A stretch of 64,000 bases of DNA from Escherichia coli (GTDB lineage: Bacteria; Pseudomonadota; Gammaproteobacteria; Enterobacterales; Enterobacteriaceae): the NCBI RefSeq assembly GCF_050320075.1, contig NZ_CP190018.1; one strand, 5' to 3'. Under the pieces are notes generated by a model. That model worked only from the letters and a program-made list of their open reading frames with translations, was not told the DNA's origin and did no database searches. The translations under genes were made by a program, and so were the position numbers. Below are positions 2,707 to 30,406 of this stretch, one piece after another (position 1 is the first letter of the stretch; every line of letters begins with the position of its first letter).

Positions 2707-2899
2707 TCCTGACTTGATGCCGCAATTTCGCCAAATCGACCTTGATTAACCTCCGTCCAGGTTCGATGGCCTTCTTAATACTGCTTATCTACCCGCCTGA
2801 TATTGTTCAAAAATAATACTAATCGCAGTTTGTGTTAAAACGGCGGGTTAGCTTTATGAGATTATTCTTATCGCCCCTTCAAGAGCTAAGCCACTGAGA

Positions 2900-2972
2900 G
2901 TGCCGGAGATAAGCGCCGGATGGGGTAGAAACCCTTAAGCCTGTGTCGCACAGACTTAAGGGTTTTCTTATT
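2900..2972 (+). ncRNA. candidate small RNA ending at an intrinsic terminator in the ydiH-sufA spacer; possibly RydB; 5' end not determined
   Basis: Orphan hairpin plus U-tract about 220 bp downstream of ydiH with no ORF; an sRNA is known in this spacer in K-12 but I cannot recall its sequence. Confidence 0.3.
2930..2972 (+). terminator. Rho-independent terminator: 10-bp perfect stem AACCCTTAAG/CTTAAGGGTT followed by TTTTCTTATTT
   Basis: Inverted repeat 2930-2939 / 2955-2964 then T-rich tract, read directly. Confidence 0.6.
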
Positions 2973-20635: not shown

Positions 20636-20941
20636 TCAGGCGAGTTTTGCCTGATTGATTTGACTCAGTGGCTCATTGACATCGAAAACTTTGGCGACAA
20701 CTTCCTCAACGCCGAGATTTTTCAGTCGGGCAGTATGTTTTTCCAGATAGGCAAGGGCGCTTTTTTCATCAGTGAAAAGGTAGATCCCACCGGCTTCGTG
20801 GTTCTTTTCACTTTCTGTCCATACCTTCCACAGAAAACCAGGTTCCTGATTAATCGACTCAGCAAGCGGTTCAAGCTGCTCAGCCATTGCGTCGCCAAAT
20901 GGGCCATTAAAAGCAAAATGAAGTTGTAACAAAGTTGCCAT
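20636..20941 (-). CDS. ydhR: putative monooxygenase YdhR, 101 aa
   Basis: 101-aa ORF adjacent to the tRNA-Val pair. Confidence 0.85.
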
Positions 20942-21048
20942 AGCGATTCTCCTTCTGATAACGCATACGAAGACAGTGTAAATCTTTTAATGTATTGGAT
21001 ACAGAGAAGAAACAGAGGGAAAAAGGAGAAGACCAGATTAAGAAAATC

Positions 21049-21125
21049 TGGTGCGTCCGAGTGGACTCGAACCACCGACCCCCACCATGTCAAGGTGGTG
21101 CTCTAACCAACTGAGCTACGGACGC
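21049..21125 (-). tRNA. valW: tRNA-Val (anticodon GAC), 77 nt with encoded CCA
   Basis: Reverse complement reads GCGTCCGTAGCTCAGTTGGTTAGAGCACCACCTTGACATGGTGGGGGTCGGTGGTTCGAGTCCACTCGGACGCACCA; anticodon loop TTGACAT. Confidence 0.95.
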
Positions 21126-21129
21126 AGGA

Positions 21130-21206
21130 TGGTGCGTTCAATTGGACTCGAACCAACGACCCCCACCATGTCAAGGTGGTGCTCTAACCAACTGAGCTAT
21201 GAACGC
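21130..21206 (-). tRNA. valV: tRNA-Val (anticodon GAC), 77 nt with encoded CCA
   Basis: Reverse complement reads GCGTTCATAGCTCAGTTGGTTAGAGCACCACCTTGACATGGTGGGGGTCGTTGGTTCGAGTCCAATTGAACGCACCA; 4-bp spacer to the other copy. Confidence 0.95.
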
Positions 21207-21513
21207 AACGTTGTAGGTGACAACGGGGACGAATATTAGCGGCAGAGTGGGAAGGTGGCAAGAGGCAAAACGTATTTTTCTGCGGTATTTCGACCGTTTG
21301 CAGAGCTTTTAAGCAAATTGGCTATATTTTGTTGATTTGCAAGGGCGATTTTTATTCAGGATCGCATTTACATCTGACACAACCCAATAATCTGTGTATC
21401 AGAGTTTAAACAGAGTTGTTTGCCACCATCTCAAATCTGTCGTGGATAAATCCTTCGTAGCCTTTACACTTAGGTAGCAATAAAGGCACACAGATGCAGC
21501 AAAGGAATAAATC

Positions 21514-22770
21514 ATGGGATCTGATGCGAAAAACTTGATGAGCGACGGGAACGTGCAAATTGTTAAGACCGGCGAGGTCATTGGCGTGACGCAACTTACT
21601 GAAGGTGAGTTAATTGTTGAAGCTGGCGGAAGAGCCGAAAATACCGTGGTCACGGGGGCTGGCTGGTTGAAAGTGGCAACCGGTGGGATCGCCAAATGCA
21701 CACAGTACGGCAACAATGGCACGCTATCGGTCAGCGACGGTGCCATTGCCACAGATATTGTTCAGTCCGAGGGAGGCGCAATTAGTCTCTCTACGCTCGC
21801 TACGGTTAATGGCCGCCATCCCGAAGGTGAATTCAGCGTTGATAAAGGTTATGCCTGCGGTTTGTTGCTGGAAAATGGCGGTAACCTGCGTGTACTGGAA
21901 GGCCATCGCGCGGAAAAAATTATTCTCGATCAAGAGGGTGGCCTGTTGGTCAATGGGACAACCTCAGCGGTCGTGGTAGATGAAGGTGGTGAATTGTTGG
22001 TGTATCCAGGTGGGGAAGCCAGCAATTGTGAGATTAATCAGGGCGGCGTTTTTATGCTGGCGGGGAAAGCCAGTGATACATTGCTTGCTGGTGGCACCAT
22101 GAATAATCTCGGTGGTGAAGACTCTGACACTATTGTTGAGAATGGATCCACTTATCGTCTGGGGACGGATGGTCTTCAGCTCTACAGTTCCGGTAAGACG
22201 CAAAACCTGTCCGTTAATGTGGGTGGTCGGGCTGAAGTGCATGCCGGTACGCTGGAAAATGCGGTAATACAAGGTGGGACAGTGATCCTGTTGTCACCCA
22301 CCAGCGCGGACGAAAATTTTGTCGTAGAGGAAGATCGCGTACCGGTTGAACTGACCGGTAGTGTTGCATTACTGGACGGCGCTTCAATGATTATTGGCTA
22401 TGGCGCAGATCTGCAACAATCAACGATTACTGTACAGCAGGGCGGTGTGTTGATTCTCGACGGCAGTACGGTAAAAGGTGACAGTGTCACTTTCAGTGTT
22501 GGTAACATCAATCTCAATGGCGGAAAACTGTGGCTGATCACTGATGCGGCAACGCAGGTGCATCTGAAAGTGAAACGCCTGCGTGGAGAGGGAGCCATTT
22601 GCCTGCAAACCAGTGCGAAAGAAATTTCACCTGACTTCATCAATGTGAAAGGGGAAGTTACCGGGGATATACACGTTGAGATAACAGATGCCAGTCGGCA
22701 AACTCTGTGTAACGCACTGAAACTACAGCCAGACGAAGACGGGATTGGCGCAACGCTCCAGCCTGCGTAA
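21514..22770 (+). CDS. ydhQ: autotransporter-adhesin-related beta-helix repeat protein YdhQ, 418 aa
   Basis: 418-aa Gly/Thr/Val-rich repeat protein; no N-terminal signal peptide or C-terminal beta-barrel evident. Confidence 0.85.
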   Translation: MGSDAKNLMSDGNVQIVKTGEVIGVTQLTEGELIVEAGGRAENTVVTGAGWLKVATGGIAKCTQYGNNGTLSVSDGAIATDIVQSEGGAISLSTLATVNGRHPEGEFSVDKGYACGLLLENGGNLRVLEGHRAEKIILDQEGGLLVNGTTSAVVVDEGGELLVYPGGEASNCEINQGGVFMLAGKASDTLLAGGTMNNLGGEDSDTIVENGSTYRLGTDGLQLYSSGKTQNLSVNVGGRAEVHAGTLENAVIQGGTVILLSPTSADENFVVEEDRVPVELTGSVALLDGASMIIGYGADLQQSTITVQQGGVLILDGSTVKGDSVTFSVGNINLNGGKLWLITDAATQVHLKVKRLRGEGAICLQTSAKEISPDFINVKGEVTGDIHVEITDASRQTLCNALKLQPDEDGIGATLQPA

Positions 22771-29797: not shown

Positions 29798-29841
29798 TCC
29801 ATTTCACTCCAGACCCTAACTTCAGCTCCTGCAAAATCGCA

Positions 29842-29857
29842 AGGTAAACGTTTGCCT
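29842..29857 (-). promoter_or_regulatory. PurR operator (PUR box) in the purR leader
   Basis: Minus strand reads AGGCAAACGTTTACCT, matching ANGCAAACGTTTNCNT; 45-60 bp upstream of purR ATG. Confidence 0.6.
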
Positions 29858-30066
29858 TTACACACCTTACGCACAACAAAAGTGTTGCGGTACGCCGGAA
29901 AAACGACACGGAGCGTCAGGAAGGGGTCAATGGCCAGTACGCAAATAGTGTAAGCGTGGAATTTTGGCCGATCTTGACGAAAAGGGGAAGTGGTAAAAAC
30001 ACTTATCATTATAAATGACGGGAGATTTTTTCATCACAGTGTGTAAAAATGCGTAATATCACTTTT

Positions 30067-30075
30067 TGTGTGGTA
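30067..30075. repeat. IS1 target-site duplication, left copy TGTGTGGTA
   Basis: Identical 9-mer directly flanks both ends of the element. Confidence 0.9.
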
Positions 30076-30098
30076 GGTGATGCTGCCAACTTACTGAT
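30076..30098. repeat. IS1 left terminal inverted repeat
   Basis: GGTGATGCTGCCAACTTACTGAT. Confidence 0.9.
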
Positions 30099-30130
30099 TT
30101 AGTGTATGATGGTGTTTTTGAGGTGCTCCA

Positions 30131-30406
30131 GTGGCTTCTGTTTCTATCAGCTGTCCCTCCTGTTCAGCTACTGACGGGGTGGTGCGTAACGGCAAAAGCA
30201 CCGCCGGACATCAGCGCTATCTCTGCTCTCACTGCCGTAAAACATGGCAACTGCAGTTCACTTACACCGCTTCTCAACCCGGTACGCACCAGAAAATCAT
30301 TGATATGGCCATGAATGGCGTTGGATGCCGGGCAACTGCCCGCATTATGGGCGTTGGCCTCAACACGATTTTCCGCCATTTAAAAAACTCAGGCCGCAGT
30401 CGGTAA
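30131..30406 (+). CDS. insA: IS1 InsA (DNA-binding inhibitor; N-terminal part of InsAB' transposase), 91 aa
   Basis: [43 protein letters not shown]... zinc-finger and HTH. Confidence 0.97.

Follow-up and report, generated by a model that had tools for sequence, protein, structure and literature searches.

Location and identity of the locus

Two tRNA-Val(GAC) genes, valV and valW, lie head to tail on the minus strand of a 64-kb stretch of Escherichia coli DNA (64,000 nt of contig NZ_CP190018.1), here called the window. ARAGORN detected exactly two tRNA genes in the window, both tRNA-Val(gac), at 21049-21125 and 21130-21206. Both genes have a length of 77 nt and encode the 3'-terminal CCA, and the full-model matches to the Rfam tRNA family RF00005 scored 70.1 bits for valV and 69.6 bits for valW, against a gathering score of 29. 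An initial annotation had described two 77-nt tRNA-Val(GAC) genes with encoded CCA and a 4-bp spacer, in agreement with ARAGORN, Rfam and the sequence. The core of the locus, in the order of transcription, is as follows.

21206..21130, minus strand: valV, tRNA-Val(GAC), tRNAVal2B (ARAGORN; Rfam 70.1 bits; identical to K-12 b1665)
21126..21129, minus strand: intergenic spacer UCCU, 4 nt (AGGA on the plus strand, TCCT in sense)
21125..21049, minus strand: valW, tRNA-Val(GAC), tRNAVal2A (ARAGORN; Rfam 69.6 bits; identical to K-12 b1666)

Both genes read CTTGACAT around the anticodon (gac according to ARAGORN) and both end in ACGC-A-CCA, with A73 as the discriminator. We take the identity nucleotides for ValRS to be A35 and C36 of the GAC anticodon together with A73, and both genes carry them.

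The genes were compared with the K-12 MG1655 record, in which valV (b1665) occupies 1746435-1746511 and valW (b1666) 1746516-1746592, in the orientation opposite to that of the window. Both genes and the spacer aligned at 100% identity. Over an alignment of 371 nt the promoter hexamers, the leader, the genes, the spacer and the proximal trailer were all identical, and the two sequences departed from each other at just three single bases of the flanks; one of these lies in the valW-ydhR spacer and the other two upstream of the -35 hexamer. Because this alignment is to annotated K-12, the upstream copy is assigned as valV and the downstream copy as valW. A 1.5-kb query around the site matched 5425 of 5426 complete E. 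coli genomes, several of them at 100%, and the annotation of an identical E. coli record and of K-12 gives the neighbourhood as ydhQ, two tRNA-Val genes, ydhR and ydhS. By sequence comparison the interval is identified as the E. coli valV-valW operon, with valV upstream and valW downstream, between ydhQ and ydhR; no evidence against this identification was met.

An apparent sequence polymorphism of the pair among E. coli was considered and rejected. A 158-nt query returned 3381 genomes at ≥99% identity and 2044 at 95-99%, and the lower band was an artefact of joining offset tandem BLAST pieces: an aligned genome reported at '97.5%' was identical to the window. Elsewhere in the window, Rfam matches above the gathering score were found for rydB (2873-2933, plus strand, 81.6 bits) and STnc550 (29798-30177, plus strand, 261.4 bits), both consistent with the E. 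coli suf / ydh region.

Differences between the two copies

The initial annotation had contrasted GCGTCCG with GCGTTCA and GGTGGTTCGAGTCCACTCGG with GTTGGTTCGAGTCCAATTGA without giving a strand; these strings are exact on the minus strand. Its statement that the copies are not exact duplicates is borne out by six differing columns of 77 (5, 7, 51, 65, 67 and 69), to which we add the pairwise compensation that was absent from it. Together the six make up three base pairs in which both partners are exchanged; the acceptor stem contains two of these and the T stem the third.

Pair 5:68: U-A in valV, C-G in valW
Pair 7:66: A-U in valV, G-C in valW
Pair 50:64: U-A in valV, G-C in valW

Either copy folds into a perfect cloverleaf, complete with a 7-bp acceptor stem, the D, anticodon and T arms and TTCGA in the T loop: ARAGORN calls both, and 21 of 21 stem pairs are standard in each (100% of cells paired). 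When the 3' partners were shifted by one to three columns the pairing was destroyed. A shuffle control on pairing was weak, as it comprised n=2 sequences only, and 65 of 500 shuffles reached the observed value; compensation is shown much more strongly by the differences across species, described below, which fall on paired columns.

The initial annotation had called the copies isoacceptor variants. They are variants, and since they share the GAC anticodon they are isodecoders (as defined in PMC1693877), not isoacceptors. Both are expressed, as the annotation had envisaged, since Val2A and Val2B were each purified from E. coli RNA with a specific probe (PMC1851638). The 3' half of valW is perfectly complementary to the Val2A probe, TGCGTCCGAGTGGACTCGAACCACCGACCC, and the 3' half of valV to the Val2B probe, TGCGTTCAATTGGACTCGAACCAACGACCC (PMC1851638); on the strength of this exact complementarity valW is assigned to tRNAVal2A and valV to tRNAVal2B. 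Both species are also quantified in tRNA abundance tables (PMC4535986).

Promoter, transcription and processing

Upstream of valV a consensus scan located one promoter, followed by the leader.

21233..21261, minus strand: sigma-70 promoter, -35 TTGCCA at 21261-21256, 17-nt spacer, -10 TAATAT at 21238-21233 (consensus scan)
21207..21226, minus strand: valV 5' leader, with U at -1 (published start sites, sequence, predicted fold)

The hexamers match the consensus at 9 of 12 positions, and a G+C-rich stretch, TCGTCCCC, follows the -10. A single promoter upstream of valV has been published, with 5/6 matches at -35 and 4/6 at -10 and with support from primer extension (PMC2190699), and the promoter found by the scan has exactly these hexamer scores. 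The reported transcription starts are two Cs, some 18-19 nt ahead of the 5' end of mature valV (PMC2190699). The corresponding C run in the window spans 21228-21225, of which 21226 and 21225 lie 7-8 nt after the -10, 1 nt off the published numbering. A 6-bp hairpin, CGUUGU-caccu-ACAACG, is predicted in the 19-20 nt leader at 21209-21225 (minus strand), ending 2 nt before the RNase P site.

The initial annotation had concluded that genes so close must be co-transcribed and processed, and published experiments bear this out with one promoter, a dicistronic precursor and separation by RNase P (PMC2190699; PMC4176162; PMC7049720). The spacer was described as 'only 4 nt in length (UCCU)' and as lacking an A/U-rich site for RNase E (PMC2190699), and the UCCU spacer in the window is equally short and free of such a site, which is why RNase E would not be needed. 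In K-12 the dicistronic precursor builds up in rnpA49 and not in rne-1 (PMC2190699; PMC7049720). RNase P cuts at both mature 5' ends and so parts the tRNAs independently of RNase E (PMC2190699; PMC4176162; PMC7049720), while PNPase and RNase II take off the sequence downstream of valW (PMC2190699). Co-transcription from the sigma-70 promoter and RNase P-dependent separation at UCCU date from experiments of 2007 (PMC2190699), 2014 and 2020, and the growth arrest of rnpA49 was accompanied by loss of the valV/valW tRNAs (PMC4176162; PMC7049720).

In the scheme that these experiments support for the window, one sigma-70 promoter, some 20 nt before valV, would give rise to a dicistronic precursor, in which a cut by RNase P at the valW 5' end would both mature valW and free pre-valV with a 4-nt UCCU trailer. 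Exonucleases acting 3' to 5' would then trim to the encoded CCA, with PNPase and RNase II clearing the trailer after valW. The products are two valine tRNAs reading GUC/GUU with anticodon GAC, and their genes represent an old tandem duplication.

The valV valW operon is the founding example of the RNase P-dependent, RNase E-independent operons, which were described by Mohanty, Agrawal and Kushner and also include leuQ leuP leuV, secG leuU, valU and lysT; its short pyrimidine spacer offers RNase E no A/U-rich site, and separation falls to RNase P (PMC2190699; PMC4176162; PMC7049720). It differs from valU and lysT at its 3' end, since those operons have recognised Rho-independent terminators that are removed by RNase P (PMC4176162), whereas valV-valW has been described as Rho-terminated with an unstructured trailer.

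The hairpin and trailer downstream of valW

Two features lie between the end of valW and ydhR.

21020..21052, minus strand: hairpin ACCAGAUU-uucuu-AAUCUGGU at 21052-21032, then CUUCUCCUUUUU at 21031-21020 (terminator-like scan, fold)
20942..21031, minus strand: valW-ydhR intergenic trailer, pyrimidine-rich and G-poor, ending at the ydhR ATG at 20941-20939 (composition)

The 5' arm of the hairpin, ACCAGAUU, includes valW's own ACCA 3' end, and the 3' arm is AAUCUGGU. The hairpin folds at -12.3 kcal/mol (z = -3.3), and none of 200 shuffles folded as well; the predicted fold of the whole precursor places it directly after the valW acceptor stem. An intrinsic terminator would have a G+C-rich stem-loop with an unbroken run of U directly behind it; here just 3 of the 8 stem pairs are G-C, and other bases interrupt the tail CUUCUCCUUUUU. 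The terminator-like scan of 20800-21600 found one such site against a shuffle mean of 0.9, which is no enrichment, so the case for the hairpin rests on its conservation across genera.

That conservation was assessed in the 112 distinct downstream sequences of the related loci listed in the array scan described below. Uninterrupted CACCA-anchored stems of ≥7 bp occurred in 25 of the 112, against a mean of 0.29 and at most 2 in composition-preserving shuffles. They comprised 10 different stem sequences, for which RNAalifold returned 9 pairs, 3 of them with double-sided changes. Among the listed loci the hairpin is kept, with compensatory changes, in Escherichia, Citrobacter, Enterobacter, Lelliottia, Pseudescherichia and Trabulsiella; it is absent in Kosakonia, Mangrovibacter, Siccibacter and others. 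The tails are U-rich in some genera (loci L020 and L049: CUUUUUCUU) and not in Enterobacter (CAAAUCCU). We regard the hairpin as a candidate weak intrinsic terminator or CCA-sequestering element that may affect processing.

The trailer contains 7-10 C and 2-3 G per 30 nt down to about 21000, a composition that in E. coli would be compatible with a Rho-loading site. Termination has been described as Rho-dependent, with ydhR not co-transcribed (PMC2190699), and the Rho-dependence was itself inferred from 'no predicted secondary structures' downstream of valW (PMC2190699). Once ACCA is included, the covarying hairpin is at odds with the published unstructured trailer, and a purely Rho-dependent model becomes less secure. 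Beyond that published inference, we found no literature on Rho-dependence, an effect of bicyclomycin or Term-seq mapping of 3' ends at valW. The precursor VWT was reported to be about 35 nt longer than VW1 (PMC2190699), which is roughly, not exactly, as expected for an end at the U tract. This terminator-containing transcript resists RNase P (PMC2190699), and terminators inhibit RNase P on other tRNA operons (PMC2241853); sequestration of the CCA by the predicted hairpin could be a reason for the resistance of VWT. A conserved CCA-anchored hairpin would bring valV-valW closer to the terminator-bearing valU and lysT operons.

Tandem Val(GAC) arrays in other Enterobacterales

Species-representative genomes were searched in one scan for a Val(GAC) 3' end, a spacer of 0-30 nt and the 5' part of the next gene, which gave at least 120 loci. 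From the matches listed 116 arrays were extracted, 89 with two copies, 25 with three and 2 with five. Like the pair in the window, the 2 to 5 copies of each array stand head to tail, encode their CCA and have U at -1. The spacers in the matches listed ran from 2 to 39 nt with 4 nt the commonest (40 of 145), a spread that is biased to E. coli-like arrays since the pattern fixed parts of both genes and a spacer of ≤30 nt. The base at -1 of the downstream copies was T (U) in 141 of 147 cases among the same matches. RNase P prefers U(-1), and the observed proportion fits this preference.

A valV-type gene followed by a valW-type gene was present in 57 of the 116 listed arrays. The hosts of these 57 span at least 20 genera within Enterobacteriaceae, among them Escherichia, Citrobacter, Enterobacter, Klebsiella, Kosakonia, Lelliottia, Leclercia, Cedecea, Mangrovibacter, Siccibacter, Franconibacter, Trabulsiella, Shimwellia and Phytobacter. 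Both genes were 100% identical to those of E. coli in 55 of these 57 arrays, an identity figure that the fixed search pattern biases upwards, with spacers of 3 to 18 nt; among the matches listed the valV/valW combination was specific to Enterobacteriaceae. Other families have other arrangements. Serratia, Rahnella, Photorhabdus, Xenorhabdus and Proteus (Yersiniaceae/Morganellaceae) carry identical valW-type copies with spacers of 20-30 nt, whereas Erwiniaceae pair a U5-A68/U7-A66 variant with the valW type, often with a third copy. The five-gene arrays belong to Proteus alimentorum (L063, 3919-4331) and Erwinia sp. ErVv1 (L072), and in the former the five genes do not differ from one another, nor do the four 29-nt spacers. 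This identity suggests recent amplification or ongoing homogenisation in Proteus, unlike the stable two-variant pair of Enterobacteriaceae.

Across all listed arrays the differences between adjacent copies fall almost entirely on the paired columns 5/69, 7/67, 51/65 and 52/64, a distribution that we read from the aligned genes as strong evidence of compensatory evolution.

Apparently collapsed and altered pairs in natural isolates

Two E. coli genomes, Q65 (NZ_CP180222.1; L004, 402-478) and EC7518 (NZ_CP085183.1; H23), have a single hybrid tRNA-Val at the site, a frequency of 2 in 5425 genomes. The hybrid takes its 5' end from valV and its 3' part from valW, with an in-register deletion of an 81-nt unit, and its predicted acceptor stem contains a U5-G68 wobble and an A7-C66 mismatch. 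It is either a real product of unequal crossover or an assembly collapse. In E. coli 14EC047 (NZ_CP024155.1; L005, 151-227) a one-sided change of valW C5 to T gives a U5-G68 wobble; this could be a compensatory intermediate or a short conversion tract from valV.

Interpretation

The two isodecoders are most likely functionally equivalent and supply gene dosage. Equivalence is argued from the Watson-Crick swaps, which keep the cloverleaf, the ValRS identity nucleotides and the predicted affinity for EF-Tu. Tuning of EF-Tu binding through the T-stem difference was considered as an alternative role and rejected, because U-A and G-C at pair 50-64 both have an average ddG of 0.0 kcal/mol (PMC3239215, Table 2). 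The unchanged sequences and order across many genera could also reflect distinct roles, such that selection keeps two molecules specialised in stability, modification, susceptibility to toxins or nucleases, or rate of processing. The valV-then-valW order of the 57 arrays, with both genes matching E. coli exactly in 55, speaks for such specialisation, as does the lack of homogenisation between copies 81 bp apart that share an identical core of 43 nt. We nevertheless hold it to be improbable: all of the differences keep the structure, no effect on EF-Tu is predicted for the T-stem change, and identical copies suffice for Serratia, Rahnella, Photorhabdus, Xenorhabdus and Proteus. Moreover, tRNA genes are nearly invariant within Enterobacteriaceae anyway and the search pattern inflates the identity figure, while selection against mismatched recombinants such as the Q65 hybrid is a simpler account of persistence. 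Persistence of two copies without homogenisation needs no special function, because recombinants would carry mismatches. A broader proposal, that the compensated differences are kept as a barrier to collapse or for the sake of two species and that the CCA hairpin additionally controls termination or the order of RNase P cuts, is somewhat less doubtful than specialisation and still unlikely. Any recombination between the copies gives a hybrid with mismatched stems, as in Q65 and EC7518, and on this proposal the compensated divergence would thereby hinder collapse or homogenisation.

Decay or silencing of one copy is hardly credible. Nothing speaks for it except that the copies differ. Their tRNA-model scores are similar, every change is compensated and 5425 genomes conserve the two genes. 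The mature tRNAs have each been purified (PMC1851638) and quantified (PMC4535986), and northern blots show that both need RNase P for maturation (PMC2190699; PMC7049720); isolation of both refutes a silent copy. It is also very unlikely, if a little less so, that the locus owes its importance to a plus-strand antisense small RNA homologous to HPnc0260. Its basis is a match at 20925-21087 (plus strand) to Rfam RF02194 (HPnc0260, a Helicobacter antisense RNA), which covers the full model and at 112.3 bits exceeds the gathering score of 59. Model positions 118-156, however, contribute about 68 of these bits, and this segment corresponds to a generic tRNA T-arm and acceptor end in reverse complement. 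Without these last 39 positions the match keeps 44.5 bits, less than the gathering score; HPnc0260 was consequently set aside, the hit being for the most part to antisense tRNA. The H. pylori transcript HPnc0260 (Nrr2) is repressed by NikR and runs divergently from ureA (PMC5385501), a context absent here. Rfam scans of Pectobacterium and Piscirickettsia have reported RF02194 as well, which points to generic matching of antisense tRNA, and in gamma-proteobacteria the model seems to respond to the 3' halves of tRNAs in antisense. No promoter-like site was found on the plus strand in a scan of 20800-21600.

Against these alternatives we consider it practically certain that the locus is the valV-valW operon, a dicistron separated by RNase P that arose by an old tandem duplication and whose products are most likely equivalent isodecoders.

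Conclusions

valV-valW is a textbook tRNA operon, and its identification here is correct and ordinary, the locus being already known in detail: it was the model substrate that established RNase P as the separator of some polycistronic tRNA transcripts. What is added is of minor novelty. The covarying hairpin that includes ACCA may be of interest to specialists in tRNA processing, and there are natural E. coli isolates in which the pair appears collapsed to a mismatched hybrid. To the same minor degree of novelty belongs the persistence, across Enterobacteriaceae, of two isodecoders in the same order that share a core long enough to recombine.
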